Shown here: one piece after another, positions 1-33,949 of the stretch
Position numbering within the stretch: position 1 is the first letter of the stretch
Layout of the letters: the number at the start of each line of letters is the position of its first letter
DNA from: Candidatus Latescibacterota bacterium
GTDB taxonomy: Bacteria; Latescibacterota; UBA2968
NCBI GenBank assembly: GCA_965207885.1
Contig: OZ242311.1
Coordinates: 544,001-608,000, forward strand
Direction of reading: 5' to 3'
Length of the DNA stretch: 64,000 bases
Notes under the pieces: model-generated
Seen by the model: only the letters and a program-made list of their open reading frames with translations
Told to the model about the DNA's origin: nothing
The model's database searches: none
Program-made: the position numbers and the translations under genes

Positions 1-1
1 G

Positions 2-346
2 GATCTTTCTCCGCTGTCGGGTTTGACCGAGTTGAGGTGGCTGGATGTGAGTAATAATCTCATCTGGGATATATCGCCGCTATCGACTTTGACAGAGTTG
101 GGGGGCTTGGCTCTGAATAACAATGCGGTCTCGGATCTTTCTCCGCTGTCGGATTTGCCCAGGCTGCGAAGGGTGCATGGTTGGGATTGCGATGTTTCGG
201 ATTTATCGCCTCTGGTGGCGAATGCGGGATTGCGTGGCGAGAACAGTTTGGTCGATTTGAGGGATAATCCCCTGAGCGATGTTTCGATTAATAAGCATGT
301 TCCGGTGCTTCAGGAGAGAGGGGTCAGGGTGAGACTCAGTAACTGA
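2..346 (+). CDS. Leucine-rich repeat (internalin-like) protein, 3' part (5' end outside window)
   Basis: Open frame from base 2 (DLSPLSGLTELRWLDVSNNLIWDISPL...), repeated LxxLxLxxNxIxDLSPL units and a capping LRDNPLS motif. Confidence 0.85.
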   Translation, partial: DLSPLSGLTELRWLDVSNNLIWDISPLSTLTELGGLALNNNAVSDLSPLSDLPRLRRVHGWDCDVSDLSPLVANAGLRGENSLVDLRDNPLSDVSINKHVPVLQERGVRVRLSN

Positions 347-352
347 GGGCAC

Positions 353-1354
353 TCAGGCACTCGGGTCTTGAAAGACGAGTTCCATGCCGTCTGTGACAGT
401 GACCGTGATTTGCAATTTTCTCGGTTCTGTCAGGTGTGCGGGGTGGGGTTGTCCGTCGATCCATACGTTGGGATAGCGACACCAGGGGGCGGGTACGTCG
501 GCGCAGAGGGTGAGCGTGCGGCAGGTGACGCGGTCGCTCAGGTTGTTGAGGTGAAGGCGGTAGTGCTTTTGGGTTTGCGTGTCGGACAGTATTTCGATTT
601 GGGTGTGGCGTCTGGTCTGGTGGTAGAAGAGTACTTCTTCGGGTACGGCGCACCAGACTTTGTCTCCGCCTTCTGTGAGGATGGTTTCAAATCTTTTTCT
701 GAGTTGTGGATGCGAGCAGTCTTTGTTGGGGTGGATGGGTTTTTCCAATGGGCAATGGCAGTAGTCGATGATCCAGCCGTTTTGCGCTTGTGCATGGCGG
801 ATGTTGCGGAATGGGTCGTATTCGCTGAAGAATGGGGCGTAATACTGTTCGTGCAATGCCGTGCGGTTGATCCAGAAGAGCGGGGTGTTTGGACGGTTGA
901 GGGCGTCGGTCAGGCTCATTGCGCCGAGGTAGCCGTATTTGCGGCAGGCGTCGAGGACGTGGTCCGACATGTTGGCGTTGTTGCCGGGCGCGCAGTAGAG
1001 ATCGACGGGTGCGTCAATGGCGGCTTCGAGTACGTCTTTGGCGCGGCCAATTTCCAGGTCAACCATGTCGGGTTGTATGAGTTCATGGCTATAGGAGTGA
1101 TTGCCAATTCCCCAGCCCCGGGCGAGGAGGTCTTTGAGTTCGTCGGCGTTCATGTGGCGATAGCCATTGTAGCTGGAGTTGCCTATGTTGCGCGTTTCGC
1201 CCAGTTGCCCGACGACGACTTCTACATGTCCCGGGATGCCGTATTCTTCGTGGATGGGAATTGCGAATTGGTGCAGGTCAACAAGGGCTTCGTCATAGGT
1301 GATGGAATAGACCCAGGTTTTGTTGTATTTCCATGGGCATATTGTGAGGGCCAT
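353..1354 (-). CDS. Polysaccharide deacetylase (NodB/CE4-like) family protein
   Basis: SITYDE and GNHSYSH metal-binding motifs; start re-called to ATG 1354 (MALTICPW) behind a GGAG RBS. Confidence 0.75.
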   Translation of the reverse strand: MALTICPWKYNKTWVYSITYDEALVDLHQFAIPIHEEYGIPGHVEVVVGQLGETRNIGNSSYNGYRHMNADELKDLLARGWGIGNHSYSHELIQPDMVDLEIGRAKDVLEAAIDAPVDLYCAPGNNANMSDHVLDACRKYGYLGAMSLTDALNRPNTPLFWINRTALHEQYYAPFFSEYDPFRNIRHAQAQNGWIIDYCHCPLEKPIHPNKDCSHPQLRKRFETILTEGGDKVWCAVPEEVLFYHQTRRHTQIEILSDTQTQKHYRLHLNNLSDRVTCRTLTLCADVPAPWCRYPNVWIDGQPHPAHLTEPRKLQITVTVTDGMELVFQDPSA

Positions 1355-1368
1355 GTTTTTCTCCAGTG

Positions 1369-2127
1369 TCAGGCTGAAAACGCCTGAGCGAAATCTCGAA
1401 ATGTGGTGCTGTATCCCAGTTGCCATTCGAAGATGTGTGTGCCGTAACGGGTAGCCAATTTTTCGGGATAGGTGCTGGGGGTTTCCACGCCGACTGTTCC
1501 GTCGCGCATGAGGATGCATTGATAACCGCGGGCGAGCATGTCTCTGGCTCCGCCTTCGGCGCCGAGGATGCACATGTTGGTTGCAAATCCCGTGTAGATG
1601 AGGGTTGTGATGTCGCGCGTTTTGAGGTAAGTGTCGAGTACGTCGGTGTAAAAGACGAGGGGTTCGTCTTGTATTGGGGAGACGATGGCGGCCCGTTTCA
1701 TGTTTGCAAGTGGCGATTTTGTGAGGTAGTTCGGGCCATGTGCGCGATTTCGCATGGTTTGTGCGCGGTTTTCGGGCTCCGGTTGTGATGTTTCTTTGCG
1801 TCGGGAAGGGATGTGGGGATATTGATGCGCCATCCAATCGGTTTCGACATGGCAGACGGGCATTCCGATTTTGCGCGCGATGTCCATGGCCGGGCGTATG
1901 ACTTCGGCCATGATGCGCGCGGCTTCGGCGGTTGCCTGGGGCCAGCCCATGCCCACGCAGTAGTTGGGGTCGATTGCCGGACCATCTGGACAGCCGATGT
2001 TCCAGCAGTGCAGGCCGATGAGGGCGGTTTTTGCAACGGGTAATTCGAGGCGAACAGATTCGTAACCGGGGGCATCAATGGGCAGGGCGCGATAATACCG
2101 GGCGTTCAAGGAGTATGTGTGTGACAT
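1369..2127 (-). CDS. Isochorismatase / cysteine hydrolase family protein (divergent)
   Basis: LIYTGFATNMCI nucleophile motif and RGYQCILMRD motif. Confidence 0.75.
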   Translation of the reverse strand: MSHTYSLNARYYRALPIDAPGYESVRLELPVAKTALIGLHCWNIGCPDGPAIDPNYCVGMGWPQATAEAARIMAEVIRPAMDIARKIGMPVCHVETDWMAHQYPHIPSRRKETSQPEPENRAQTMRNRAHGPNYLTKSPLANMKRAAIVSPIQDEPLVFYTDVLDTYLKTRDITTLIYTGFATNMCILGAEGGARDMLARGYQCILMRDGTVGVETPSTYPEKLATRYGTHIFEWQLGYSTTFRDFAQAFSA

Positions 2128-2133
2128 GGGGTG

Positions 2134-3378
2134 TTAGACTCGATTCTGGTCGGCGACGGCGGCGACTATTTGGGCGACGAGGTCGCAGTGTTCGGGCTGG
2201 TATTTTTCGCAGAATGTGGTCCAGCGGATGAAATTGTCGAGAAAGTCCCGGGCATTGGGACAGGTGTTTGCGTTGTATGTGTAGGTGTGGGATGCCGGGG
2301 GTTTGGAGAAGGGATGGAGGTGTTTTTCGGCTTTGTCCGTTAAAAAGGGCAGTGCGGCGGGCATGAGATAGTATTTGCCGAGTCCCGCTCCGGTGAGTCC
2401 TGCTTCGGCGACTTGCTGGGCAAAGGATTCGGCGTCGCATGTAAAGGCATTGGGATCGATGTTGAATCCGGCCATCCAGCAGGAATAGGTTTCCATGTAA
2501 TCTGGTATGGATAGCGGGATTATACCGGGAATTTCGGCGAGTTTGTCGGTGATGAGGCGAATCATGCGGTCGATATGTGCAACGGCCGGCCGGATGATTT
2601 CGAGTTGTGCAAGGGTGATGGCAGCGGTCGATTGGGTTATGCGGATCGCGTATCCATTTACGGCGTGTACGCGCCCCAGTCCCTCAACCATTTGCCCGCC
2701 TCTGCTTTGACCGACGAACCGAATTTGTTCGGCGAGTTTATCGTCATTTGTAATTACACAGCCGCCGACGTCGGAGCCGAGTGTTTTTTCGGAGTCGAAT
2801 GAGAAGGCGGCGACATCGCCCAGGGTGCCTGCAAGGCGGCCTTTGTACGTGCCAAATACGGCCTGGCATACGTCTTCAATGACGGTCAGGCCGTGTTTTT
2901 TTGCCAGGGCGTGGATGGGGTCCATGTCGCATATGAGGCCGGTTATGTGGACGGCGAGAATGGCCCGCGTGCGGTTGGTAATACAGGGTGCGATGGTGCG
3001 GGCGCTGATGAGCGGTGTGCCGGGTTCGGTGTCGGGAAAGACCGGGATGTAGTTTTCTTTTAGCAGGCCCATGACCGTGCCGTAGTCGGTGATGGGCGAT
3101 ACGATGATTTCATCGCCGGGTTCGAGATTGAGTGCGGCTGCAAGTATGTTGAGGGCTGCGGTGCATCCAGGTGTGCCGATGCAGTGTTTGATGCCCATTT
3201 CGCTTTCGAAAGCGGCTTCAAATCTCCGAATCATGTCGCATTGCAGACCCGAGGAGACGACTTCCTGGAGGTATGTCAGGCAGTTTGGACCCATGGTGCG
3301 CGGAAAGGGTTGGGGCAAGCTGCCCGTGATTCCTTCAAATGCTTCGGCACCGTATTTTGCGCGTTCTTGTATAGACAT
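2134..3378 (-). CDS. DegT/DnrJ/EryC1/StrS family PLP-dependent aminotransferase
   Basis: GCTAAL, PGDEII, VIEDVCQA and FSFDSEKTL (PLP Lys) motifs; start re-called to ATG 3378 behind AGGTGG. Confidence 0.9.
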   Translation of the reverse strand: MSIQERAKYGAEAFEGITGSLPQPFPRTMGPNCLTYLQEVVSSGLQCDMIRRFEAAFESEMGIKHCIGTPGCTAALNILAAALNLEPGDEIIVSPITDYGTVMGLLKENYIPVFPDTEPGTPLISARTIAPCITNRTRAILAVHITGLICDMDPIHALAKKHGLTVIEDVCQAVFGTYKGRLAGTLGDVAAFSFDSEKTLGSDVGGCVITNDDKLAEQIRFVGQSRGGQMVEGLGRVHAVNGYAIRITQSTAAITLAQLEIIRPAVAHIDRMIRLITDKLAEIPGIIPLSIPDYMETYSCWMAGFNIDPNAFTCDAESFAQQVAEAGLTGAGLGKYYLMPAALPFLTDKAEKHLHPFSKPPASHTYTYNANTCPNARDFLDNFIRWTTFCEKYQPEHCDLVAQIVAAVADQNRV

Positions 3379-3379
3379 G

Positions 3380-5365
3380 TTACCACCTGTGTACGTAATG
3401 CCCTTGCCCGGAAAACCACAGGGCATCGACCGCGAACGACAGCGCGACCCCCAGGCCATAGCCGGTGAGCAAACCGATGAAGAAAGGCTGAAAACGGCGG
3501 TAAGCAGAAACACCGCCGAAGTGCAGTACAAACAATTTGAAAGCCCAAATAATAAAAATTGAGACCTGATTGCTGCGGGCGACATTGGTGCTGCAAACCG
3601 TCAGGCCAATGGGATGCAAAGGCCACCAGGAGAAGCGATATTGCAAGAATGTGAGCAGTCCCATCAGCGCTGCGCCGCCGCCAAAAAATCCCATTCTTTG
3701 CCAGTCGGGACCAAAGGGATTGACAATTTTGCTGAGGATGACCGGATAGATTCGGTTGGTTCCCGATTTGAGGGGAATATCGTTGAAATTGAAGGCCCCT
3801 CTTTCATAACTCAGGGGAATTACATAGAAAATAAATGTTAGACAGCCGACGAGCAATCCCAAAAAGACTGCGCTGAGGAGTTTGCGATGGTCGGTTTTTA
3901 TCCATTCAGACAATTTGGCAATGTGGATCAGCGCGGGCATAAACAGGCCGCGAATGTAGTTGGTGAGCGCGTAGGAGAGGGCGATTGATGTCATTGTGGG
4001 CGTTGAAAGGGCGTGTGCGCCCAGAGAGTAAATGGTGAAAATCTGTGCGCTGATCGGGGCCTGCACAAAGAGGATGCCGGTTTGAGCGACGACACGCGCT
4101 ACGCCTATGTAAATGACAAAGGTAGCTGCAGTGTAAAAGGCGATCGCTGAAAAGGCCATGCCGGATTGGTATAACCAGATAATAATAAAAAACGTTCCGA
4201 AAAACAGGCCCAAAATAGCGTTCCGATAAGACATGAGTTCCCCGCTGTCGTCGATGGGGTATTGCGGATTTACGGCTTTGAGGAAGACGGCTTTGAGGTG
4301 GTGGCGAGAGATGTACAATCCCCAAAAAACGAAAAAACACAGCGCGCCAAAACACAACCAGCCCGCGCCGGAAAAGTGAAGCGCGCCATAGGGGTCGCCG
4401 CGGCCGGGCATATCAAATCCGATGCGATTTAAGAGGCCACCTGGAATTTGGTAAAATAGGAGATGGAAGAACCACATGCTGAATAGCACATCGAGGTTGG
4501 CAAAATAGGCAAAGCCCATGATATAGATATTGAATCGGGGGAAGATGGGAGGATAGCCTTTGGCAAAATAGAAAAAGGGAAGTGTCAGCTTAATATCGGG
4601 TACAAGAGGAAAGAAGAAATGGAGGATATTATAGGAGAGGATGCCGGATGACAGTGCGAATCCCGCCCAGTACAGACCCCTGTATTGAAGGGATTTATCG
4701 CGTGTGGATTCTGAGGAAACGATATGCAGTGCCGGACTCAATAGGGGAAATGTCAGGCGTTCATTTTCAGACCACTGGCGGCGCAAGATAACTGCAATAC
4801 AGGCCGAGACAAAGACAATGGCAACGATGAATACAAGCCACCAGAAAAGAGGGGCAACCCATATAGACCAGGGGATTGGCGTGCCGGGCAGCGTGCCTTC
4901 GTAAAAATCGCGCATTGCACCGCCGGTATTGGGCGGTACCAAATAGGTGGGAAGGTGGGCGTGGAAGAACTCAGCCCAGCGGTTTTCTGGCGTGGCAAAA
5001 TAATAGGGTGTGGCAATGGTTCCCAGGAGAAAACCGAGCACGCCTGAGCCGGGCACTACGCCGCCTGCAAGCCCCATTGCGATAATGACCAGTTGTTCAG
5101 AGGGGGCTAAAGAGAAGGCGGGGTTCAGGGTTGACAGCAGGGGGTTGAGCAGGTAGCGGATGAGGAGAAAGAGGATGAATACAGCGACTGGAAAATGGCT
5201 GAGGTTCATGCGCGAAGCCCGCACGATATATTCTGAATAGGGTATCCAGAGGTTGATCAGAACAACGAGCGCGAGCCCCAGTACAACGGCGCGAAGACTC
5301 ACGCCACTTGTCAGGTACTCGGACAGGGATTCTGACCTGTTTTGTGGGGCTGGCGTTTTTGCCAT
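3380..5365 (-). CDS. Polytopic inner-membrane protein, DUF6785/DUF6784-like (putative transporter)
   Basis: 661 aa with many TM segments; RRQWSENERLTFPL, WWPLHPIG and PFFIGL motifs typical of this family. Confidence 0.7.
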   Translation of the reverse strand: MAKTPAPQNRSESLSEYLTSGVSLRAVVLGLALVVLINLWIPYSEYIVRASRMNLSHFPVAVFILFLLIRYLLNPLLSTLNPAFSLAPSEQLVIIAMGLAGGVVPGSGVLGFLLGTIATPYYFATPENRWAEFFHAHLPTYLVPPNTGGAMRDFYEGTLPGTPIPWSIWVAPLFWWLVFIVAIVFVSACIAVILRRQWSENERLTFPLLSPALHIVSSESTRDKSLQYRGLYWAGFALSSGILSYNILHFFFPLVPDIKLTLPFFYFAKGYPPIFPRFNIYIMGFAYFANLDVLFSMWFFHLLFYQIPGGLLNRIGFDMPGRGDPYGALHFSGAGWLCFGALCFFVFWGLYISRHHLKAVFLKAVNPQYPIDDSGELMSYRNAILGLFFGTFFIIIWLYQSGMAFSAIAFYTAATFVIYIGVARVVAQTGILFVQAPISAQIFTIYSLGAHALSTPTMTSIALSYALTNYIRGLFMPALIHIAKLSEWIKTDHRKLLSAVFLGLLVGCLTFIFYVIPLSYERGAFNFNDIPLKSGTNRIYPVILSKIVNPFGPDWQRMGFFGGGAALMGLLTFLQYRFSWWPLHPIGLTVCSTNVARSNQVSIFIIWAFKLFVLHFGGVSAYRRFQPFFIGLLTGYGLGVALSFAVDALWFSGQGHYVHRW

Positions 5366-5388
5366 AGGTCCTGGTAGCTTCTCGCAGC

Positions 5389-6759
5389 TTATGGCGGAGA
5401 AAATGCCTCAGCTGGCAGCGATGTCGGGTCGGTCTGATCGCCGATAGCTTGTTGATCTCGCCAGTTGGGATTGTAGCGTTCTCCTGGCATGGTGGCGTGG
5501 ATCATTTCATAAACACCGTCTCCAAGGCGATCCAGAAATACAAACTCGTAGTAGTTGAGATGTTCGTAGGTCCAGATTTCAAAGGCTTTGCCCGTGGCAC
5601 TGAATGGGTTGCGCTCGATGTCTGTCGGCAAGCCGTATTTGATGTGGATGCGCCCTTGATCGGTATCCGATCCCTTTTGTCCGGGACGCGCAGAGAAGTG
5701 TTCGTCTGCATAGCGAATGCGCCTGAAATGTTCCGTGGCAAATTCGTTTTCAGGTGTTAGAGGCGTTGGGTCGCGTTTTTTCCAGAAGGTGAGGATAAAT
5801 TCTACTTTTTCTGCGGCGCTTAAAGAGGCATAAGTTTCGCGTTCGGTTTTTGTGGCGATATAGCGGATTTGTGTGTAATAGCGTTTTAAGGAGGCGGGGT
5901 CTGTTGCCAGTGCGGGTTTTTGTACAGAAAAAGCCCGCTGGCGCGTGGTCATTTTGCCCGTGCCGTTATCGCGGGCAGTGATTTCCAGTATATACTGCCC
6001 TGGCATTATGCCCTCAATGTCAAGAGATTCAGTTTTAATAGCGGTTGCGCCGGGTTTGCGATAGCGCGCCGAGGGAAAGTTTTTGATCCGCTGTCCCGCG
6101 GTATCCAGGAGGGCATAGGCGAGGTCGAAAGTTGCAGCGCGTCCCTCGCCTGTGGCAAGGCCATAGAGTTCAAAGTAGATGTTTAAGGTCGTTGCGATTG
6201 ACCTGCGCGCGTTGGGAACGATTTTGAACCCGTTCTTGACCAGATTTCTGGTGGTCTGTGTGTTTGCAGCGTCAATACGATGGGCAAACTGGATGTCGCT
6301 TATGGTCGGGGCGGCGTTGTCAAATTCGGGCATTGTAAAGGCGAGTTCACAGGTGCCTTCGGCATTGGCCTGCAAATCTTTCAGGCGAATGTGAACTCTA
6401 TAAGTGCCGGGCGCAATTCTGAAGCTCAATGCCTCTGTAATCATTTGATCGCGCAGGTCTGTTCCCGAGTCTGTGACGATCTGTTTTTCCCATTTGAAGG
6501 GCATGCTATCGCGTTTGAAAAAAAAGGTGGCTTCTACGCGATAGGCAGCCCGCTGGTGGTCGTTCAATTCACTGAAGGTGAGGTGCTGACACGGGCACTG
6601 GAGATACAGTTCGCCGTAGTTCAGGCTGTCTGGCGTATCAAAACCCGCTCTGTCGATCCAAAATGGAATGGCGCCTCGCGCCCTGACGGGAATATCTTCT
6701 CCCGAAATTGGCGCGAGGAGAGCCTGTGCGAGACACAGCGACAAAAGGATATATTTCAT
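5389..6759 (-). CDS. GWxTD domain-containing protein
   Basis: Signal peptide; FWKKRDPTP..NEF..EHFRRI.YAD..F and GSDTDQGRIHIKYGLP (GWxTDRG variant), EIWTY. Confidence 0.85.
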   Translation of the reverse strand: MKYILLSLCLAQALLAPISGEDIPVRARGAIPFWIDRAGFDTPDSLNYGELYLQCPCQHLTFSELNDHQRAAYRVEATFFFKRDSMPFKWEKQIVTDSGTDLRDQMITEALSFRIAPGTYRVHIRLKDLQANAEGTCELAFTMPEFDNAAPTISDIQFAHRIDAANTQTTRNLVKNGFKIVPNARRSIATTLNIYFELYGLATGEGRAATFDLAYALLDTAGQRIKNFPSARYRKPGATAIKTESLDIEGIMPGQYILEITARDNGTGKMTTRQRAFSVQKPALATDPASLKRYYTQIRYIATKTERETYASLSAAEKVEFILTFWKKRDPTPLTPENEFATEHFRRIRYADEHFSARPGQKGSDTDQGRIHIKYGLPTDIERNPFSATGKAFEIWTYEHLNYYEFVFLDRLGDGVYEMIHATMPGERYNPNWRDQQAIGDQTDPTSLPAEAFSPP

Positions 6760-6767
6760 ATCGCAAC

Positions 6768-7709
6768 TCAGAAGGAACCGCCGATATTTATCCGATAGGT
6801 GGGATCCAATAACTCGCCCATGTCGCTATACGCCATGTCCAGGGTGAAGGGGCGCTCATTGACCGAGTATTTGAGGCCAAAACCGAGTGCAAAACTCTCG
6901 GTATCGTTATTGAATTTCCAGCCACCGCGCAGTGCGAGAATATTGTGCAACCAGAGTTCGGCACCCGCGTGAATGCGGCCTTCAAAATCGACAAAGAAGG
7001 CATTTTCCGCAGCTACGGTAAGCGAAACTGGATCGCCCAGATTGCCATAGAGTTCCATTGAAGCCGCGATGCTGTAGATGAGGGGGCGGAAGGCCGTATC
7101 GTCGATGATGACGATATCCTGTCCGAAATTCTTCAGCGTCATGGCCAAACGCAAAGACCGGAACCCGGTGTAAAAGAGCGTGCCTATGGAGATATCCAGA
7201 CCGCTGTTGACATCGGTATAGAGCGTCTCTTGAATATACCGGCCCTGGGCACCAAATGACAATCGGTCGGTGAATTTGATGGCATAAGTCAGGCCAATGG
7301 CAAAGTCGCTGTCTTTAATGATATTGCCCGTGCCATTGGGCTGGAAAATGGTGGTTTCTTCAAATTCGTCGGGTGTGAAAGACAAGACCGTGATGCCTAT
7401 GGTCTGCGTGCCCAGGTTATAGGCAAAAGCCCCCGAATAAAATTTGGAATTGACCATCCACTTGTTGTATCCCAGGCTAAAAGCGGCGCGATCGATTTGC
7501 GTGATGCCCGCTGGATTCCAGAACATGGCATCGATACCCGTGCCCACTGCGGTGTACGCATCGCCCATGGCAACTGCGCGCGCGCTTTGGGAGACTTTGA
7601 GGAAGGTGAATCCGGCATTGCCGAGTTTTTTGAGCCCGGCCTCTGCGCCTGTTGCCGATAGGGCAAAGGCAGTGAAGACCAGGACGAGTGTTGTTTGTAA
7701 GCGTTTCAC
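6768..7709 (-). CDS. PorV/PorQ-like (UPF0164) outer-membrane beta-barrel
   Basis: Signal peptide; FLKVSQSARAVAMGDAYTA...AMFWNPAG motif; C-terminal Phe. Confidence 0.85.
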   Translation of the reverse strand: MKRLQTTLVLVFTAFALSATGAEAGLKKLGNAGFTFLKVSQSARAVAMGDAYTAVGTGIDAMFWNPAGITQIDRAAFSLGYNKWMVNSKFYSGAFAYNLGTQTIGITVLSFTPDEFEETTIFQPNGTGNIIKDSDFAIGLTYAIKFTDRLSFGAQGRYIQETLYTDVNSGLDISIGTLFYTGFRSLRLAMTLKNFGQDIVIIDDTAFRPLIYSIAASMELYGNLGDPVSLTVAAENAFFVDFEGRIHAGAELWLHNILALRGGWKFNNDTESFALGFGLKYSVNERPFTLDMAYSDMGELLDPTYRINIGGSF

Positions 7710-7725
7710 GTGTTCCTCCTTTGCA

Positions 7726-10035
7726 CTATTTGATGATCATAAACATCCCGGTCTGCTTTTTGCCCGTTTCGCCAGCAACCAGAGATTCTACCACGTAGTA
7801 GTAGCGTCCGGCGGCGACGCGCCCGGAAAATGTGCGCGTGCGCTGGTCCCAGGTGGCTTCGCCCCTGTCGGGGTCGGTAGTGCGCTGTGGGTGGTTGATG
7901 ACGGCGACCAAATCTCCGGAGATTGAAAAGATGGAGATTTTTGCTTTTCGGGGTATGTTGACAAAACGAATATTGTTGCTGGCAGGTGGATACCTGTGGT
8001 CGGCATCTCCCGGGTCGTCCCGAAAGGGATTGGGAACTACGCGCACCTGTTCGGATAGCGCGTCTTTTTCAGGGGTTGCAATCACGATGGGGCTTCTGGA
8101 GACATTCATGCGCTGTTCGGGTGCGCTGTGTCCGGATTCCAAAGATGGAATGGCCCGGCCTGTGCCGTTCCAGTCGCTGTGTCCGGAATCGTAGGTGCGC
8201 ACCGAATACCAGTACCTGAAACCGGGTACGGATTCTACGTCTCGATAGGTGTAGGTTCCCCCATCGGCGTAGGAGATCGTGGGCGATGTCCAGGGCGTGC
8301 CGGGTGCGTATTCCGTGTTGGATGGGGTAGTTCCTTTGGGGATATCAGCCACGAGTTCCCAGGGTCCCAGGTGGTTGTTTTGGGTGCGATAGACCCGATA
8401 GCCCTGCACATCCAGGGCTTCATCGCCCGTATAATCCGGGTCAGGGGACTTTTCAGCCCGGTCAGACCATGTGATGGCGTTGTTCCCGTTTTCGTCGCTA
8501 TCTACAAATACGGCAACATCGGGAGGCGCGTCTGGCAGGTCGTAATTGTTGTCGTAGGCAAATTGCGCGCGTTCCAAATGGAGGGCCATTGCCCGTTCGC
8601 CGTCGGCGACCTGGCTCTGGTTGCCCTGGCGCGCCCATTCGTAAACATCCATGGGACTGCCGCCGGGACCGGCAAATTCGGCACCCGATCCGGCGACCCA
8701 GGCGACCACGACTTTGGCTTTTTCACCGGGGGCGAGATCATAAGGTCCGTAGGTGTGTGCGAAGGTTACGCGGCTGACTTTGGAGGGATTGTCCTGGACA
8801 GCTGGAACTCTACCTGAACCAATGAATTCATTGTAGAGATTTTCGTCGCTATTCAGGTTGGTAATATCTGGGGTGTCCCAATCGAAGCGCCCGTAGATCT
8901 CCCACCAGTTGGCGAAGGCGGGCTGGTCCATTGTTTTGGGGGCCACGTAGGTCTCGTTGTCGTTGGTGAACCCGTCGGTGGGATCGTAATCGAGGGGTGC
9001 CAGGCCGATGTACTGGAAAGCCATGAGTTCGCCGTGGTTGAGCTGGCCCCGGTTGATATAGGCTGACTTGGCGTTGTTTTTATCGAAAGGCTGACCCGTG
9101 TCGTCTCCGGCCGAAGAGAGCAGATCACTGTCATAGACATAAGAGATTTTCTTGCCACGGAGATCGGCCAGGCCATCGAAGTTGGACGCTCCGCTGTATT
9201 TGTACCAGTCGTCCAGGATGATCGGGTCGGAATACGCCCACGGTACGGTTTGGTTCTGCCAGCGGTGCCCGGCCCACGATGGGGCGAGGTTGTTCACAAA
9301 GGCGAAATAGACATCCTCGTGATCAACGGGTAGCCCCGCATCGGGTGTGCCGTCTCCGTTGTTATCTCCGGTGTTTTCGATGATGACTTCGAGAATAATA
9401 AAGTCGTCGTAGTCCGGATAACTCCACGCTCTGGCTTTGCGGGTAATGGTGAGGCCGCGTTCTGTCGTCCATTTAGAGATGACGATTTCTTCGGCCTCAT
9501 TGTCGTTGGGAATATAACGTCCGTAATCGTAGTTGTGGATTTCGATGGGTTCGTCGGCCACCAGTGCAGGTGCTCCGGGCCAGTAATTGGCCGTGGTATT
9601 GCCCGTGAGGGGCGATCGGGTTTCAATGCCCAGACCGCGTTCTGGACCCGAAGCCGCATCGTAGATCATTTCAAAGATGTCGTCGGTATTGTAGCGCGGG
9701 TTAGAGATCGATACATTGTGTGATCCCCCTTCTCTGGTAAAAACCCAAAAACCCTCGCCCTGGCTGGTGTGATAGCGGTGGTCGTTGTCCTGTCCAATGA
9801 TCCAGTATTCGGTAAAATCGCGCTCGCCAATGCCCCAGCCGGGATACATTAAGCCGGCATCTGCACCCAGGCGGCTGTCGTCGCGCAGGCCCTGTGTACC
9901 GGTATTGCGAAAGGTAGCCCAGAGCTTGCCCCGGGTCAGGTGGCGTTGAAGTTCGGGTTGCTGGGCACAGATTTCGGATGCAAATACCAGCACACACAGA
10001 ACGCCCATCCATCCGATGTGTTTTAATGGATACAT
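7726..10035 (-). CDS. Secreted protein with Fn3-like region and T9SS-type C-terminal sorting domain
   Basis: Signal peptide; C-terminal VRVVPNPF..IRFVNIP..KISIFSISGDLV..ATWD..GRYYYVV..GMFMIIK; QGYRVYR and YWYSVRTYD Fn3-like strands. Confidence 0.7.
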   Translation of the reverse strand: MYPLKHIGWMGVLCVLVFASEICAQQPELQRHLTRGKLWATFRNTGTQGLRDDSRLGADAGLMYPGWGIGERDFTEYWIIGQDNDHRYHTSQGEGFWVFTREGGSHNVSISNPRYNTDDIFEMIYDAASGPERGLGIETRSPLTGNTTANYWPGAPALVADEPIEIHNYDYGRYIPNDNEAEEIVISKWTTERGLTITRKARAWSYPDYDDFIILEVIIENTGDNNGDGTPDAGLPVDHEDVYFAFVNNLAPSWAGHRWQNQTVPWAYSDPIILDDWYKYSGASNFDGLADLRGKKISYVYDSDLLSSAGDDTGQPFDKNNAKSAYINRGQLNHGELMAFQYIGLAPLDYDPTDGFTNDNETYVAPKTMDQPAFANWWEIYGRFDWDTPDITNLNSDENLYNEFIGSGRVPAVQDNPSKVSRVTFAHTYGPYDLAPGEKAKVVVAWVAGSGAEFAGPGGSPMDVYEWARQGNQSQVADGERAMALHLERAQFAYDNNYDLPDAPPDVAVFVDSDENGNNAITWSDRAEKSPDPDYTGDEALDVQGYRVYRTQNNHLGPWELVADIPKGTTPSNTEYAPGTPWTSPTISYADGGTYTYRDVESVPGFRYWYSVRTYDSGHSDWNGTGRAIPSLESGHSAPEQRMNVSRSPIVIATPEKDALSEQVRVVPNPFRDDPGDADHRYPPASNNIRFVNIPRKAKISIFSISGDLVAVINHPQRTTDPDRGEATWDQRTRTFSGRVAAGRYYYVVESLVAGETGKKQTGMFMIIK

Positions 10036-10059
10036 GTTATTGCTCCTCAGATAATGAAA

Positions 10060-13000
10060 TTAAAATCCAATTTGGAGACCTATGCTGATCTCTCGAGGCC
10101 GACCGGCCCAGCGGTGGTATTCTTTGGTATCGCCGTAGTTGATATAGTTTTTGTCCGTGGGTTTGGGCATGTCCATGCCGTAGAGATACCAGAGTTCGGC
10201 CTGTGGGCCCTGATTGTGTCGATCAAACCAGGGACCGCGCCAGAAATATTCGGTGGCCGGGTCGCGCTGGTTGAAGAAGTTGTACACGTTCATAAACAGG
10301 GTGGCTTCGGTTCGACCTGTGCGGAAGCGTTTTTCCAAAGACAGGTGGGTCTTGGTTTCCATAGGTCCAAATCGCTCGACATTGCCCTGTGTGGGATGCG
10401 GAATGCTGATTCGGCGTCCCGTTTTCAGGGTGTTGATCACATTGAGCCTGAAGCCGCCGAGGGCTGGGCCGTAATGCATGGGCGTTTCATACGTAAACGC
10501 GATTTTCATGGTGCCGCGTCGGTCGCCAAAACCAGCGGTTTCTGCGCGTCCCCCACGACCCGCACTGCGATCAGAGGTGGTGTTGCGGGTGAAGTAAAAG
10601 ACGCCTGAAAGATTTTCCACTTCCTGAATTTCGCTGTCGGTCAACGGATTCCAATCGGGGTTGGTGCCCTCTCGAATGGTCTGGATATAGCGGTCTGCTT
10701 CGGCGCCGATGTCCTGAATTTGCTGCGATGTGAGCGGCACTTTTGCTTCTGAGCCATCGTCGCTGGCATTGACTACACCGTCGCCATTGGTGTCTTTGGT
10801 GTGCTGGACGAAATAGAGATCTGATGCGATAAATTGCGAGTTGGGAAAGTAGATGATCCGGTTGATTCCCGCGTTGCCTCCCGACTGCCACTGGTGGTTG
10901 TAGGCGACCTGGAAGGAGAAGTTCTGGCTGAAGTCCTTTCGGAGGCTCATTTCAAATCCCCGATTGTCTGTAAAGACATAGCCCAGAGGTGTGTTGCGTC
11001 CCCTTTGGCTTTTGCGACTGGGGTCACGCCAGTGGGCTCTGCCGAATCGAACCTGACCATCTACGCTTTGCTGATAAGTCGTGAAGCTCAGGACATAGTC
11101 CTGATAGAAGTTCCAGTCTGTGCCCACCTCAAAATTGGTGGAGCGTTTGTAATCGAGGTGGGGATTGCCCGTGGTGGCTGGCTGGTTGTTTTTATTGAGC
11201 CATTCGGTATCGTCGATTTGGCCATTGTCGTTGAAGTCTTCCGGGGGTGCAACGCCGCGCCATTCGTAGGAATAGAGGTGCCAGAACCCGGGCATCTGAT
11301 GAAAGATGCCGTAGGAAAATCGAATGATGGCATTGGCCGTAATGGGGTGTGAAACACCCAGGCGAGGGCTCCATGCCGATTTGGTGGATACAGAGGTGCG
11401 CGGCATAAATTTGCGCTGCCGAGACCAGGAGTTGGTCATAGGTGCTCCGCTCCAGGCATTGTTGGCAAGTGGGGAGTAAAAATCGCCGTTGTGGTCGTGT
11501 CTGTCGTAGCGGATGCCCAGGTTGACGATGATGCCTTCAAATTCCATTTTGTCCTGGAGGTAAAAGGCGGATTGGATGGGGTTAATGGGTTCGCCCATTT
11601 CGTAGGGCACGCCCGCGAGTTGATAGCGCGATTTGCCCGCCTGAGGCCAGTTGATCTGGTTCCACCAGTAGGTGTGTCGCGTCAGATCAATGCCGGTTTT
11701 GATAAAGTGGTTCTTGTTGATCTGGCTGGAATAATCGAGTTTGAAGTTGAGGCGGGCGCGGTGGTCGTTGATCCAGATGGAGACCCGTCTGGGGCCAATG
11801 GTGAATACCCCGTCCTGATCTTTTCTGAGCGGTTCTGTAATGCCGCCGCCAAATTGGCTGGTGACACCCGGCACATTGGTTGTGTCTGTGGCGTCGCGGT
11901 AATAGGATAAGCGGGCTTCGTAAAAGGTTTTGTTGCTCAGGGTATGTGTGAGGGATATGTATGCCAGGTCGTGTTTGACGTTGGCGATGCCTGCACCAGC
12001 TTCACCTGCGGGCAGGAAAATGTCGATGCCCTGGAGTTCTCGACCAACGGTGCGCTTGACGCCCTGTACCCAGCTTTCCCCCTCGCCGACCTGATAGGCT
12101 TCGTGACGTGCATAGACCCCGCCGACTTTAACTTTTATGTTGGATTGCACATCCCAGGCCAGTTTGTAGGTGCCTTTGATGTTGTAGGGCGATTCGATCC
12201 AGCGGGCGGTTTGTGGAGATGTTGAGACGGCCTGGTGGAAGATGCCGCGTTTGGTGGGAGAGGGAAAATGCGAGGCTTGTCCCTCGTGCTGTGCCGTGAC
12301 AAAAAAGGAGGCATTTCCCAGCAATGGACCCGAGAGTGACCCATCGACTTCATAACCGTGAATGCCCGTGTAGTCCGTGCGCTCGTGCGCCAGGCGGGTG
12401 ATGTCGTCGCCCGTTCCCATCTGGCGGTCTGGACCGGGATCTGTGTATGTTTCATTTTCCCAGGTCGCATCGCCCCATTTCATTCTGCCTTTGTGGATGG
12501 GGCTGTCATAGACATTGCCACCCCAGTGTTTTTTGCCCGGTGGAATATAGGTGAAGCCGCCTTTGCCGTGAAAATTTTTGCCTCCTTCTCGGGTGATGAT
12601 GTGAATGGCGCCAGATGTTGCATTGCCGTATTCGGCTTCCATCCCGCCAGTGATGACGGTGATTTCTTGCACGGCGTCGCTGTTGACTCCGACAAATTGA
12701 ACATCGCCCCGGGCAGTGCCCGCATCCATGACGACGCCATCCACATAGACGAGTGTTTCCGAGTTGCCCCGGTTGCCCTGGTAGCTGCCGCGAATGGCGG
12801 GTTCGTTGTTGTCGAGAGAGACGCCTGCCTGAAGGCTCATGAGTTCTGAGGTGCTTGCCGCTGTCGATAGCCGATCTATCGTATCACCACCCATGATGTA
12901 TTTGCTCGTGGTTTTGTCTCTTTCCACGGGTGGGCGTTCAGCGACAACTGTGAGTTCGGCCAATTCGACGGTGGTTTCTTTGAGTTGAAAGTTGAGAGGC

Positions 13001-13281
13001 GTGGTGAAGTCCGTTTTGACCGATACATCGCTCTGGGTTTGATTGGTATATCCGATAAGCGAAGCTGTGAGCGCGTATCGTCCCGGTAGAATATTGATGA
13101 TAAAATAGCTGCCATCGGCATCTGCCACAGCGCCGAGTCGCGTACCTTCTACGATTACATTGGCGCCGGGAAGGGGATTGCCCTGATCGTCTTTGATGAC
13201 ACCGGCGATTTTACCCGTGGTGCCCGCATAGAGATGAGAGGCAAAACACAGAAGTAAGCATATCATAGCTATTCGTTTCAT
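10060..13281 (-). CDS. TonB-dependent receptor with N-terminal carboxypeptidase-regulatory-like domain
   Basis: GTTGKIAG..PLPGANV; plug motif VQEITVITGGMEAEYGNATSGAIHIIT; NLGIRYD, SPRLG; C-terminal GLQIGF. Confidence 0.92.
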   Translation of the reverse strand: MKRIAMICLLLCFASHLYAGTTGKIAGVIKDDQGNPLPGANVIVEGTRLGAVADADGSYFIINILPGRYALTASLIGYTNQTQSDVSVKTDFTTPLNFQLKETTVELAELTVVAERPPVERDKTTSKYIMGGDTIDRLSTAASTSELMSLQAGVSLDNNEPAIRGSYQGNRGNSETLVYVDGVVMDAGTARGDVQFVGVNSDAVQEITVITGGMEAEYGNATSGAIHIITREGGKNFHGKGGFTYIPPGKKHWGGNVYDSPIHKGRMKWGDATWENETYTDPGPDRQMGTGDDITRLAHERTDYTGIHGYEVDGSLSGPLLGNASFFVTAQHEGQASHFPSPTKRGIFHQAVSTSPQTARWIESPYNIKGTYKLAWDVQSNIKVKVGGVYARHEAYQVGEGESWVQGVKRTVGRELQGIDIFLPAGEAGAGIANVKHDLAYISLTHTLSNKTFYEARLSYYRDATDTTNVPGVTSQFGGGITEPLRKDQDGVFTIGPRRVSIWINDHRARLNFKLDYSSQINKNHFIKTGIDLTRHTYWWNQINWPQAGKSRYQLAGVPYEMGEPINPIQSAFYLQDKMEFEGIIVNLGIRYDRHDHNGDFYSPLANNAWSGAPMTNSWSRQRKFMPRTSVSTKSAWSPRLGVSHPITANAIIRFSYGIFHQMPGFWHLYSYEWRGVAPPEDFNDNGQIDDTEWLNKNNQPATTGNPHLDYKRSTNFEVGTDWNFYQDYVLSFTTYQQSVDGQVRFGRAHWRDPSRKSQRGRNTPLGYVFTDNRGFEMSLRKDFSQNFSFQVAYNHQWQSGGNAGINRIIYFPNSQFIASDLYFVQHTKDTNGDGVVNASDDGSEAKVPLTSQQIQDIGAEADRYIQTIREGTNPDWNPLTDSEIQEVENLSGVFYFTRNTTSDRSAGRGGRAETAGFGDRRGTMKIAFTYETPMHYGPALGGFRLNVINTLKTGRRISIPHPTQGNVERFGPMETKTHLSLEKRFRTGRTEATLFMNVYNFFNQRDPATEYFWRGPWFDRHNQGPQAELWYLYGMDMPKPTDKNYINYGDTKEYHRWAGRPREISIGLQIGF

Positions 13282-13293
13282 TCGCGGGTCTCC

Positions 13294-13995
13294 TTAATTT
13301 AAGTTGAATTTGATACCGGCACCGATATCGATGAGGTTAAAGGGGTATGTTTTTTCAATGCCCCAAATGAGAAAGGGACGCAATTCTCCCATCACGATAT
13401 TGTAGCGCGCGCGCACATCTAACGCGGCTTTGTCTCCCAGGCCAATTTGAACCCCGCCGCCAAAGCTGGCACTGAAAGCTGTGCGCGTGTCATTAACAGG
13501 TTCCAGGAGGATGTTTGGATCGGGAGGCGCACCGGCACCCGAAGGCGTTTGACCAGCAAAGATCAGACCGCTGACTTTGCTGGCGTAATCGTGCAGGCCC
13601 GCGCCAAATGTGAGATAGGTCGTTGTGCCCTGGCCAAACCCCTGTTCCCTCAATGCAAATAGCCAGTTGGCGTGGATGCTGTTGATAGTCATGTTGGCTT
13701 CGGCCTGTGGACTGGTGTATTCTTTGCCGTCGCTGAAGCTGAAGGTGCGCGTTTCAAGGCTGCCGTCGTTAAAGCGGGCGTGGTGAAATTCCACCTCGAC
13801 CATCTTGCGCTTGTGATAGATATAGTGCGCTGTACCCCCAAACTTGGTACCGCTGTCGTACATGTCTTTGAAGTTGAAGAGGGGAATGTAGAAGTCAAAA
13901 AAGCCGCCAGCGCCGAAAGCTCCTTCTCCTGCGGTTGCCTGCGCGTTTGGCAACAGGGCCGCAACGCATAAAATCAAGAGTAATTTTTTCAACAA
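13294..13995 (-). CDS. Outer-membrane beta-barrel protein (OmpA/OmpW-like TM domain)
   Basis: Signal peptide, alternating beta-strand pattern (YLTFGAG, FGGGVQI, DVRARY, GAGIKF); GAAAGGAG RBS before TTG. Confidence 0.7.
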   Translation of the reverse strand: MLKKLLLILCVAALLPNAQATAGEGAFGAGGFFDFYIPLFNFKDMYDSGTKFGGTAHYIYHKRKMVEVEFHHARFNDGSLETRTFSFSDGKEYTSPQAEANMTINSIHANWLFALREQGFGQGTTTYLTFGAGLHDYASKVSGLIFAGQTPSGAGAPPDPNILLEPVNDTRTAFSASFGGGVQIGLGDKAALDVRARYNIVMGELRPFLIWGIEKTYPFNLIDIGAGIKFNLN

Positions 13996-14006
13996 AAACT
14001 CCTTTC

Positions 14007-14070
14007 TCAGCTTGCTGTGTTAAAGGGATTTCCGAAACGCAATAGCATCAGTCCATTGTGACCTCCTTTC
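14007..14070 (-). promoter_or_regulatory. Leader with strong SD and two coupled micro-ORFs (MD*, MLLRFGNPFNTAS*)
   Basis: GAAAGGAGGT-CACA-ATG GAC TGA (14056-14048); TGATG overlap opens a 13-aa ORF 14048-14007 that ends next to the barrel-gene RBS. Confidence 0.35.
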
Positions 14071-14093
14071 GAGAAATACGAAGCGTTGTATTG

Positions 14094-14627
14094 TCAATTG
14101 GACAATGCTTCAAAGGATAGCGTATCTGCCACTGATTTTATTACGGTGGCAATGCGGGCGATGTCTGCGATTTGTTGTGCGTCAATGCCCAGTTTGTTCA
14201 ATTGCGATGCGTGTGCGTTGACGCAAATACCACATGCGTTTACCACACTTGCCGAGAGGCTCCACGCTTCGAATAATGCGCGATCGACACCGCCGTGGGT
14301 CAGCACGGCATTCATTCGCAATTTGGGCGGCTGTTTTTTTACGTCGTTATCTCGAATGAGATCGGTGAATTTATACCATACATTGGTCATGCTCATCATG
14401 GCAGCGGCAGATTTCACGGCTTTTATGTGTTGTTCGTCCATAACAGCCTGTGCGTCTTCGATGATGTTCTGGATCACCTGTTCATTTTTCGATACCAGTG
14501 CTGCGGTGAGTGCCGATCCCCAGGCCATTGCCGGGTCGAGACGCGATGCGGATATGACCGATCCCAGGTTCAACCGAATGTCCCGCGCATAGTCGGGCAT
14601 TGCCGATCGCAGATTATCTATTCCCAT
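14094..14627 (-). CDS. ahpD: Alkyl hydroperoxide reductase AhpD
   Basis: PDYARDIRLNL N-terminus, AAAMMSMTNVWY, LRMN, FEAWSLSASVVNACGICVNAH (CxxC plus His). Confidence 0.9.
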   Translation of the reverse strand: MGIDNLRSAMPDYARDIRLNLGSVISASRLDPAMAWGSALTAALVSKNEQVIQNIIEDAQAVMDEQHIKAVKSAAAMMSMTNVWYKFTDLIRDNDVKKQPPKLRMNAVLTHGGVDRALFEAWSLSASVVNACGICVNAHASQLNKLGIDAQQIADIARIATVIKSVADTLSFEALSN

Positions 14628-14645
14628 AAAATCTCCCGTATGAAG

Positions 14646-14685
14646 TACAAAACGCAGAGAACGGCATTGCTCTCTGCGTTTTGTA
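14646..14685. terminator. Intrinsic terminator-like hairpin (copy 1)
   Basis: TACAAAACGCAGAGA-N10-TCTCTGCGTTTTGTA perfect 15-bp stem. Confidence 0.7.
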
Positions 14686-14714
14686 ATATAACTAAAATTC
14701 TGTGCAACTTTTAA

Positions 14715-15080
14715 CTATTCTTCACCGCCGCCACCATCACCGCCACCATCACCAGACGCTGAGACGCGATTCCATACTCTCTTTGCGAATACGGTTATGA
14801 CGCCGGCATACAGAGCGATAGTGATCGGATCGACGATGGCGTCCAGTTTCTCGCCTGCCGCTGGGATGTTGCTCAACACATCCGCACCTGCAGCAGCACC
14901 GACCGCAAGCGCAACGACCAGGAAGGATGTCGCATCTTCAGCGTCGAGCGCCATCCCCCCGTACACCAGGCCCAGAATCACCAGCGCAATCGACACAATA
15001 TTTTCAGGAATTGCGCCAGCCACCAGGCCCTGAATAATGGCCAGAGCGACGATCAGGCCAACAATAATTCTGACTACCAT
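14715..15080 (-). CDS. Small 4-TM membrane protein, paralogue 1 (Gly/acidic tail)
   Basis: Hydrophobic 121 aa, GGGAGG RBS, strong similarity to the two neighbouring ORFs. Confidence 0.85.
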   Translation of the reverse strand: MVVRIIVGLIVALAIIQGLVAGAIPENIVSIALVILGLVYGGMALDAEDATSFLVVALAVGAAAGADVLSNIPAAGEKLDAIVDPITIALYAGVITVFAKRVWNRVSASGDGGGDGGGGEE

Positions 15081-15188
15081 TTCATCCTCCCAGAATAAGT
15101 TAGTTGTGTTATGACGTAGCCGTAAAGGGCTACACGGTGTATCACGCTATCACAAAGTTTCCAATCTCAGGTGAGCCACCAGTCGTCT

Positions 15189-15515: not shown

Positions 15516-15585
15516 ATTTCTTCCTCCCAGAATAGGTTAGTGTGTCACGACCTGTGGCTACAGGTCGCTGATCCGCCAGTCATCT

Positions 15586-15912: not shown

Positions 15913-16168
15913 TTCTACCTCCCAGAATGTGGTTGTGTCACGGCTTGCGCTATCGCGCAGCCGCAACGGTTACCGACGGAATGCTACAAGATGCACCATC
16001 CCCGTCATGAAAAAGGTGAAAACCCTTTTTTTCTTTTCTTATTTGTAAATGTAGAATTTCTTATCTTATTGTGTTAAAAAATGTAAACAAAGTAGCAGTG
16101 TCAAGAGAATTCCCACTCGCTCAGCAAAAAAAATTCGCTTATCTATCTATAAAATTTTCCGTACAAGT

Positions 16169-16206: not shown

Positions 16207-16229
16207 TAAAGAGTTGATTGTGTGTAGCG

Positions 16230-18383: not shown

Positions 18384-18404
18384 TAAAACCCGTAGGTTTT
18401 GGTT

Positions 18405-33939: not shown

Positions 33940-33949
33940 ACTTGACATC

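Follow-up and report, generated by a model that had tools for sequence, protein, structure and literature searches.

How a TonB-dependent receptor (TBDR) obtains its substrate when no SusD-type lipoprotein is encoded beside it is the question raised by a locus in a Candidatus Latescibacterota bacterium (GTDB lineage Bacteria; Latescibacterota; UBA2968). The locus lies within a 64,000-nucleotide stretch of contig OZ242311.1 (assembly GCA_965207885.1, forward-strand positions 544,001 to 608,000), hereafter the window, to which all coordinates refer unless a locus is named. Good understanding of TonB-dependent utilisation loci is limited to Bacteroidota, in which they are defined by lipoprotein lids of the SusD type. 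Here the TBDR belongs to a fixed core that runs from a small outer-membrane barrel through the TBDR and an unnamed, putatively secreted protein (X769) to a barrel of the PorV/PorQ family, and this core is the only part of the locus that is a conserved unit. Moreover, X769 ends in a predicted C-terminal sorting domain (CTD) for a type IX secretion system (T9SS), and together with its own anchor barrel it seems to stand in the place of the SusD lid. Our favoured explanation, to which we give an even chance, is that the locus is one copy of a modular, SusD-independent uptake system resembling a polysaccharide utilisation locus (PUL), with interchangeable catabolic genes and with X769 as the surface capture partner. 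The core, or cassette, is made up as follows.

13294..13995, minus strand: small outer-membrane beta-barrel protein (OMP), first gene of the cassette, 233 aa; OMP_b-brl PF13505, E 8e-9
10060..13281, minus strand: TBDR, 1073 aa; CarbopepD_reg_2/CarboxypepD_reg extension, VVA TonB-box-like motif and Plug
7726..10035, minus strand: X769, unnamed, putatively secreted protein, 769 aa; no Pfam or NCBIfam family
7729..8046, minus strand: CTD of X769, residues ~664-769; predicted divergent type-A T9SS sorting domain by hhalign
6768..7709, minus strand: outer-membrane barrel of the PorV/PorQ family, 313 aa; NF033709, 160.6 bits against a cut-off of 90

These four genes head a run of nine, all on the minus strand (353-13995), whose intergenic gaps are 12, 24, 16, 8, 23, 1, 6 and 14 bp. 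The gaps are those between refined starts: two open reading frames (ORFs) were over-long as listed, and their starts were reset to the first in-frame ATG past the stop of the upstream gene, at 3378 for an aminotransferase gene and at 1354 for a deacetylase gene. An AAGGAG motif precedes the TTG start of the small OMP gene, and an AhpD-family gene lies on the same strand 98 bp upstream of the run. The SusD family finds no match among the nine genes, nor among 98 neighbouring ORFs in 19 related loci. An earlier interpretation made from the letters of the window (the sequence-only reading) had described nine co-oriented genes with gaps of 1-24 bp and no SusD, and the ORF coordinates and family scans confirm this description. 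Latescibacterota genomes hold loci 94-98% identical to that of the window, one of them (98%) on the complete chromosome OZ242320.1.

Relatives of X769 are encoded in 299 stretches of the genome collection surveyed, and the best 80 of these yielded the 76 loci from which all survey counts are taken. The survey was seeded with an alignment narrower than the 45-sequence family alignment of X769. ORFs were called in all 76 loci and searched with the window proteins by phmmer, followed by one round with a hidden Markov model, and a locus was considered evaluable only if it retained enough flank on the relevant side. Record titles assign the loci to Latescibacterota, Gemmatimonadota, Calditrichota, KSB1, Neomarinimicrobiota and Fidelibacterota, with a few unclassified and one labelled Cytophagia. 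X769 is immediately preceded by a TBDR gene in 65 of 70 evaluable loci and immediately followed by a PorV-like gene in 69 of 71, whilst a homologue of the small OMP is found upstream of the TBDR in 53 of 65. At 70% identity of X769 the 76 loci fall into 20 clusters, and the contiguous triplet of TBDR, X769 and PorV-like barrel is present in representatives of 17; by inspection, the remaining three either run into a contig end or represent second copies. The arrangement is far beyond chance, given that dozens of loci spread over several phyla repeat this gene order.

Moreover, the cassette is multiplied within genomes. Six paralogous cassettes among the loci kept (L007, L016, L020, L058, L062 and L063) lie on chromosome OZ244960.1, and pairwise identities of all four core genes group them alike, into {L007, L016, L062} and {L020, L058}. 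For X769 the identities are 46-57% within the first group and 53-54% within the second, for the TBDR 42-45% and 51%, and for the OMP 54-56% and 54-55%, with all other pairs lower. The PorV-like barrel gives 52-57% and 53%, its other pairs being lower but overlapping (44-51%). Since species phylogeny cannot explain a pattern within one genome, this grouping means that the four core genes were copied jointly and then diverged jointly. Across 17 cluster representatives, identities also correlate with those of X769 for the TBDR (Spearman 0.72, 136 pairs), the PorV-like barrel (0.50) and the OMP (0.48, 105 pairs), values which are inflated by shared ancestry. Taken together, the survey and the six-cassette genome bear out the earlier proposal of a SusD-free unit of TBDR, CTD protein and PorV-like barrel, and show this unit to be conserved and co-duplicating.

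The TBDR itself has a recognisable plug (PF07715, E 2e-7), and its family profile matches the plugs of FepA/PfeA (E 1e-16) and, of the solved SusC-like chains, only the N-terminal domain of SusC. Between the extension and the plug lies a conserved VVVAE motif (consensus VVVAERPPVEPDKT), which we read by eye as a TonB box. Against the SusC/RagA model TIGR04056 the protein fails, scoring 72.8 bits over residues 24-235 only, where the cut-off is 368.25. The profile of the small OMP finds no meaningful solved relative in the PDB, its one match, to a designed lectin, being spurious. As a separate observation, residues 682-693 and 830-841 of the TBDR form EF-hand/dockerin-like calcium-loop motifs (DFNDNGQIDDTE and DTNGDGVVNASD); a 12-residue loop of the calcium type occurs in 9 of 17 members of the TBDR family, with no Pfam dockerin match.

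The nearest known arrangement is SusC/SusD (RagA/RagB), in which a large TBDR with a CarboxypepD_reg-type extension and a plug likewise stands beside a surface partner, the surface exposure of the cassette partner being presumed. As in SusC/SusD PULs, there are many paralogous loci per genome, each with its own enzymes and regulators. The cassette differs in having no SusD-family protein and a TBDR outside the SusC/RagA model, in a small outer-membrane barrel that is a further fixed member, and in its partner, which is no lipoprotein like SusD but has a putative signal peptide, a tail of the T9SS type and a PorV-like barrel of its own. The cassette would work like a SusCD locus, yet it falls outside that class on both of the defining tests, the SusC/RagA score and the SusD neighbour. 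The domain architecture of the cassette TBDR (CarboxypepD_reg extension, TonB box, plug and large barrel) is the same as that of Oar from Myxococcus xanthus. However, whereas Oar is tied to protein secretion, the context of the cassette is one of import and catabolism, with an inner-membrane transporter fold, enzymes and regulators. Oar is the Myxococcus TonB-dependent transporter (TBDT) needed for secretion of PopC, and the Oar-type architecture accounts for 28% of all TBDTs and is dominant in Bacteroidetes (PMC6434023).

The tail of X769 is predicted to be a divergent type-A T9SS sorting domain. Aligned by hhalign with the tails of neighbour-gene products that pass Por_Secre_tail (PF18962), it reaches a probability of 94.8% (E 5e-8, 63 columns). 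At E<=0.1, 11 of the 45 family members match TIGR04183 and 12 match the C-terminal end of the PorZ model; an invariant PNP motif is present in the tail. These profile comparisons agree with the T9SS-type CTD that the sequence-only reading had given this protein. A type-B CTD served by a PorP/SprF shuttle was considered and rejected, as CHU_C reaches only E 0.004 on the last 124 aa of X769 and the barrel matches PorV/PorQ models and not PorP/SprF. Canonical type-A CTD proteins adjoin cassettes in the Latescibacterota loci L069, L070 and L075, as well as in Gemmatimonadota, Calditrichota and Marinimicrobia-type loci, and it follows from the first three that Latescibacterota uses the type-A sorting signal.

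The barrel encoded next to X769 matches solved PorV (6h3i_F) and six further entries by profile (E 2.5e-20). Its scores fall below the equivalog cut-offs of PorV (63.2 against 250 bits), PorQ (73.7 against 220) and PorV2 (49.1 against 325), which makes it a distinct paralogue within the PorV/PorQ family. A complex of barrel residues 24-313 with X769 residues 645-769, each with its own alignment, was modelled and scores 0.84, the best of 3 controls scoring 0.00. The mark for this score was reached by 116 of 157 solved complexes and by 2 of 215 mismatched pairs, counts that are rough guides here since own alignments were used. Model runs share at least 91% of contacts, with partner pLDDT (predicted local distance difference test) of at least 83. 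In the contacts of lowest error, the E118-T119-T120 loop of the barrel, which is near-invariant, meets the conserved VVPNP of CTD residues 665-669, where P668 and N669 are invariant and V666 and V667 near-invariant. The pair therefore looks like a PorV-CTD pair; the model supports binding, as distinct from showing it in the cell, and to that extent it supports the earlier idea that the CTD is held by its own PorV paralogue.

Likewise, in PorZ-PorQ, in PorU-PorV and in type-B cargo with PorP/SprF a CTD protein is paired with an adjoining PorV-family barrel, which in the cassette is predicted to bind it. In a review, PorZ is described as keeping its CTD and being held by PorQ, and the CTD of PorU as being held by PorV; there it is also proposed that cognate PorV-like barrels shield CTDs from cleavage (PMC10202324). 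Specialised shuttles encoded beside their substrates have been shown in Flavobacterium (PMC12618676). In contrast to PorZ-PorQ and PorU-PorV, the cassette barrel lies below the PorV, PorQ and PorV2 equivalog cut-offs, and the cassette pair stands beside a TBDR in nearly every locus, in at least 6 copies per genome and outside Bacteroidota.

Further CTD proteins surround some cassettes. Three tandem proteins of 550-660 aa follow the cassette immediately at L070:13765-19883, L075:13563-19748 and L073:14121-19928. Each has a weak Cache-like middle (dCache_2, E 2e-7 to 5e-4) and a FlgD_ig/type-A CTD tail, and by their domains they look like T9SS-displayed ligand-binding proteins, comparable to the surface glycan-binding proteins of PULs. 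In the Marinimicrobia-type loci L050, L052, L053, L056, L065 and L072 a Por_Secre_tail protein of ~330 aa is encoded between the small OMP and the TBDR (e.g. L053:2808-3791). These same loci carry a second X769 ~3 kb past the PorV-like gene, with GDPD and ceramidase-like genes between.

In the window, five more genes complete the run.

5389..6759, minus strand: GWxTD protein with signal peptide, 456 aa; TIGR04514, E 8e-29, 100 bits against a cut-off of 28
3380..5365, minus strand: polytopic inner-membrane protein with DUF6785 and DUF6784, 661 aa; PF20581, E 8e-108, and PF20580, E 7e-20
2134..3378, minus strand: DegT/DnrJ/EryC1 aminotransferase, dependent on pyridoxal phosphate, 414 aa, ATG at 3378; PF01041, E 2e-61
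1369..2127, minus strand: isochorismatase-family (cysteine) hydrolase, 252 aa; PF00857, E 2.5e-13, with weak RutB and biuret-hydrolase matches
353..1354, minus strand: polysaccharide deacetylase of the carbohydrate esterase family 4 (CE4) type, 333 aa, ATG at 1354; Polysacc_deac_1 PF01522, E 1e-8

The DUF6785/DUF6784 protein is predicted to have the fold of a secondary transporter of the oligopeptide transporter (OPT) family, and transport would follow from this. Its AlphaFold2 (AF2) model (pLDDT 89.5; predicted template modelling score, pTM, 0.91) has one real match in Foldseek, barley Yellow Stripe 1 (HvYS1, 7wst_A; E 3.5e-9, TMq 0.63, TMt 0.69, probability 1.00), with an identity of 14% in the structural alignment; the next match has E 0.048 and a TM-score of 0.14. 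The whole-chain fold thus matches OPT/Yellow Stripe-like proteins, although, unlike these, the protein is filed by Pfam as DUF6785/DUF6784. As proton symporters, OPT members transport oligopeptides, glutathione and metal-chelate complexes, and the likely cargo would therefore be narrowed to a small, peptide-sized solute. A DUF6785 gene follows the cassette on the same strand in 42 of 65 evaluable loci, comprising 39 of 45 in Latescibacterota and 3 of 5 in Gemmatimonadota. Since the DUF6785/6784 family is also found in Planctomycetota and Zixibacteria, we regard it as an independent transporter recruited here and not as a cassette-specific part. Of its earlier assignment as the inner-membrane importer of the module, the transporter fold is thus supported, but the role is confined to the loci of two phyla.

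What surrounds the core varies from locus to locus. Neighbours in other paralogous loci include peptidases (M20, S15, M24 and M81), PhyH dioxygenases, GFO/IDH/MocA oxidoreductases, sulfatases and FGE-sulfatase, GDPD, Ldh_2 and ceramidase-like proteins. Encoded upstream are regulators of the GntR-FCD type in L013, L024 and L041; L017 has a sigma-54 activator. A transport core that stays constant while the catabolic genes are exchanged is the pattern of a utilisation locus. The three enzymes of the window have no signal peptides by eye and so would act in the cytoplasm after import. An amino or N-acylated substrate fits an aminotransferase, an amidohydrolase-type hydrolase and a deacetylase, because all three handle nitrogen-bearing groups. 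All three enzymes score below every NCBIfam equivalog cut-off, hence the compound cannot be named, and Rfam at E<=0.1 finds nothing in window positions 1-17000 and thus no riboswitch clue to it. The amino-sugar or N-acylated compound proposed earlier is therefore compatible with these enzymes, but would hold for this sublineage only.

Taken as a whole, the favoured system would work in six steps. X769 would be exported by Sec and then cross the outer membrane by means of its type-A-like CTD, a step suggested by the CTD homology. It would keep this CTD and be held at the surface by its own PorV-like barrel, as PorZ is by PorQ, in line with the complex model. Its ectodomain of ~640 aa may then capture substrate and present it to the adjacent TBDR, as the strict synteny and co-duplication suggest. 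The TBDR, which has a plug and a TonB-box-like motif, would import the substrate with TonB energy. In Latescibacterota and Gemmatimonadota, a DUF6785/6784 protein would carry a small solute, peptide-sized or chelate-like, across the inner membrane, judging from its predicted fold. Lastly, the variable enzymes and regulators upstream and downstream would set the substrate; the addition seen in the window, a DegT aminotransferase, an isochorismatase-type amidohydrolase and a CE4 deacetylase, would point to an amino or N-acylated compound. The same logic operates in Proteobacteria, where TbpB, exported by Slam, is a surface-tethered capture protein that feeds the TonB-dependent channel TbpA. The two systems are not known to be homologous, and whereas the anchor of TbpB is a lipid, X769 is proposed to be held by protein-protein contact on a barrel dedicated to it.

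Several observations weigh against this explanation. The survey, anchored on X769 and drawing 48 of its 76 loci from Latescibacterota, shows the neighbours of X769, as opposed to the frequency of such TBDRs without it. There is no TBDR upstream of X769 in 5 of 70 loci, several of which are, by inspection, extra copies a few kb downstream of a complete cassette (Marinimicrobia-type, Calditrichota and KSB1). No library model calls the CTD of the window X769 at its curated cut-off, and the core T9SS genes (SprA, PorKLMN and PorU) are not in the 64-kb window. The complex may have passed because it resembles solved PorV entries (6h3i, 8gl6 and others) and not on account of this particular pair, and complexes like it may have been seen in training. 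When the X769 model is compared with the PDB by Foldseek, the best TM-scores are 0.20-0.26 at a root-mean-square deviation of 10-12 Å, with no recognisable binding or catalytic domain. Downstream, DUF6785 is found in 0 of 15 evaluable loci of the other phyla. It has no sequence-level link to OPT, as 0 of 46 members match Pfam OPT at E<=1, and its profile finds no PDB sequence at E<=10. Promoter and terminator scans found 15 promoter-like sites where 11.6 were expected from shuffled sequence, and 17 terminator-like sites where 19.3 were expected, such that no operon boundaries can be read; since these scans are no richer than shuffled sequence, it is the short gaps that argue for a single operon.

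For X769 itself, a word-indexed protein search returned 67 relatives at E<=1e-3, each of them hypothetical or unnamed and without a precomputed Pfam domain. Of 1.84 billion representatives searched by profile, 389 reach E<=1e-30; the number rises to 2585 at E<=1e-10 and to 6569 at E<=1e-3, and the weaker hits partly match the FN3/CTD end only. Amongst the distant relatives, 29 of 35 have no Pfam family, most of the others have weak CTD or fn3 matches, and one (P0280) carries unrelated Ig-like domains. The nearest clusters in the Atlas are likewise hypothetical (Gemmatimonadota, Ignavibacteriota and Bacteroidota), and the sequence profile finds no solved relative in the PDB. The AF2 model from 45 sequences (pLDDT 87.6, pTM 0.88) comprises a putative signal peptide, a beta-rich region at ~30-500, an FN3-like domain at ~505-620, a linker and a C-terminal beta-sandwich; the hydrophobic N-terminus ends in ...CAQ-Q, as judged by eye. 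Conservation per domain is nearly flat (0.37-0.44), hence there is no clear variable region that might confer specificity. Residues R35, Y64, Y174, D275, D302, D312, D210, D211 and E216 in the N-terminal part are invariant or near-invariant. DxDxDG-like motifs were also noted in 22 of 45 X769 proteins (residues 224-229 in that of the window) and in none of the PorV-like or OMP sequences. PorZ (5m11) appears at rank 23 of the fold search with a probability of 0.6. We rejected X769 as a PorZ-like part of an attachment complex, given at least 6 copies per genome, each beside a TBDR. Unlike PorZ, X769 has no propeller domains.

One possibility is that X769, instead of being a binding lid, acts as an enzyme tethered to the surface, for instance a hydrolase or lyase, which would trim a polymer extracellularly and leave the products to the TBDR. 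The acidic and aromatic residues that are conserved across paralogues beside different enzymes are in keeping with this, as are the top fold matches, which are the N-terminal beta-sandwich parts of glycoside phosphorylases and hydrolases (GH94, GH15 and GH116), and the synteny evidence applies equally. However, those matches are the weak ones given above (TM 0.20-0.26), and X769 has no catalytic family match in Pfam, NCBIfam or PDB sequence. Calcium binding or contact with the TBDR could account for the conserved residues equally well, and it would be odd if an enzyme kept to one chemistry in loci whose neighbours vary so much. We therefore consider an enzymatic X769 unlikely, although it is the strongest competitor of a capture protein.

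Alternatively, two neighbouring systems may be present: X769, as an adhesin or surface-coat protein, and the PorV-like barrel would be a T9SS cargo and shuttle pair that only accompanies a TBDR operon. Adjoining genes for a cargo and its cognate PorV-like shuttle have been described where no TBDR is involved (PMC12618676, PMC10202324), and there are extra X769 copies with no TBDR of their own (e.g. L029, L030, L049, L050 and L053). A travelling pair is nevertheless difficult to reconcile with the fixed order of TBDR, X769 and PorV-like gene across several phyla (65/70 and 69/71 loci), with the co-duplication of all four genes in one genome, or with the correlated identities of TBDR and X769 (the Spearman 0.72 over 136 pairs, inflated by shared ancestry). 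We judge it improbable.

The sequence-only reading had gone further and treated all nine genes as one dedicated module for an amino sugar or N-acylated compound, with the GWxTD protein as periplasmic partner and the three enzymes as integral parts. Spacing of 1-24 bp throughout agrees with this, as does the recurrence of the same nine-gene order in L001, L006 and L008, and in L002 minus the isochorismatase gene. L001-L012 are twelve loci with 88-98% identical X769, and among them the DegT gene and the deacetylase gene are confined to L001, L002, L006 and L008 (4 of 11 evaluable, L005 being cut at a contig end); in the other seven the co-oriented run stops at DUF6785. Moreover, in L003 the genes past DUF6785 are on the opposite strand, and a beta-helix protein and an Amidohydro_3 protein are encoded upstream instead. 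Across the whole survey the isochorismatase gene is present in 3 of 76 loci and the deacetylase gene in 4 of 76. Of 65 evaluable loci, 14 have a GWxTD gene downstream of the cassette, and every one of these is from Latescibacterota; in the Atlas the protein finds GWxTD clusters only. Thus, as a general module the nine genes are contradicted, neither the integral enzymes nor the general GWxTD partner survives the survey, and GWxTD is an optional secreted accessory outside the core; a dedicated nine-gene module is, in our view, still more doubtful than a travelling pair. A looser association was also seen, GWxTD proteins of 500-850 aa being encoded within 10 kb of cassettes, upstream or downstream, in 22 of 48 Latescibacterota loci (L013, L036, L043, L047, L051, L059, L066 and others).

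Finally, an outward-working TBDR that, like Oar for PopC, exports X769 to the PorV-like barrel as a self-contained surface-display unit would agree with the Oar-type architecture and with the lack of core T9SS genes in the 64-kb window, but is very improbable, in that this architecture is also that of SusC-type importers and of 28% of all TBDTs (PMC6434023), the CTD is of T9SS type with canonical CTD proteins in the same phyla, and import is simpler given an inner-membrane transporter fold, cytoplasmic catabolic enzymes and GntR regulators in the same loci.

SusD-independent uptake, with X769 as capture partner, is therefore the explanation that we carry forward. Its parts are of known kinds (TBDT, T9SS-type cargo, PorV-family barrel and OPT fold); the arrangement is new. 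In the literature searched, with subscription-only papers outside the search, nothing described a TBDR coupled to both a CTD protein and a barrel of the PorV family; that literature also held no mention of DUF6785, DUF6784 or GWxTD, and no paper mentioning both Latescibacter* and T9SS. Where passages of PMC4454575, PMC5317091 and PMC11495043 speak of TBDRs, it is in general terms or in connection with vitamins or iron. The cassette, being conserved and many times duplicated, would provide a marker for utilisation loci in Latescibacterota, Gemmatimonadota, Calditrichota, KSB1 and Marinimicrobia-type bacteria. These bacteria are abundant in soils, sediments and the deep ocean, and to our knowledge little has been established of how they capture substrates. 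The cassette would also give a function to the large unnamed X769 family, with its 389 representatives at E<=1e-30, and link type IX secretion directly to TonB-dependent import, whilst DUF6785/DUF6784 gains a testable assignment as an OPT-fold importer. More broadly, we tentatively hypothesise, at somewhat less than even odds, that in the SusD-less phyla of the FCB (Fibrobacteres-Chlorobi-Bacteroidetes) group, substrate capture is performed by the X769 family and its kin, displayed by T9SS and parked on a private PorV-like barrel in a stable four-protein outer-membrane machine. If so, this would be an independent, non-lipoprotein solution to the problem that SusD solves, and would give the PorV family a second, structural job.

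Other proteins of interest lie near the cassettes and elsewhere in the window. In the KSB1 locus L023 the cassette is followed by a gene (14119-20868) whose 2249-aa product combines six cohesin domains (E 2e-77) with fn3 and CarboxypepD_reg domains. Leucine-rich-repeat (internalin-like) proteins adjoin the end of the operon in the enzyme-bearing sublineage, at positions 2-346 (plus strand) of the window and at L002:18916-20701. Between 32000 and 40000 of the window the G+C content is 0.46-0.48, compared with 0.50-0.57 elsewhere, and this region holds an IS605 OrfB/TnpB-like gene (32836-33987), a helix-turn-helix protein and several ORFs with no family; it may be a mobile island. A fragment of a DDE transposase is found at 22477-23049. 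Genes for glycan degradation at 30855-32168, 49275-50684 and 59732-62869 encode a chondroitinase-B-like beta-helix protein, a sulfatase and a GH106-like rhamnosidase, which fit a polymer-degrading lifestyle. In the 966-aa protein encoded at 26970-29870, an MFS-like membrane part is fused to a spermine/spermidine-synthase domain, with TPR repeats at the C-terminus. Lastly, a 701-aa protein at 57630-59735 joins Mur-ligase and ATP-grasp domains, which we take to be a cyanophycin-synthetase-like architecture.

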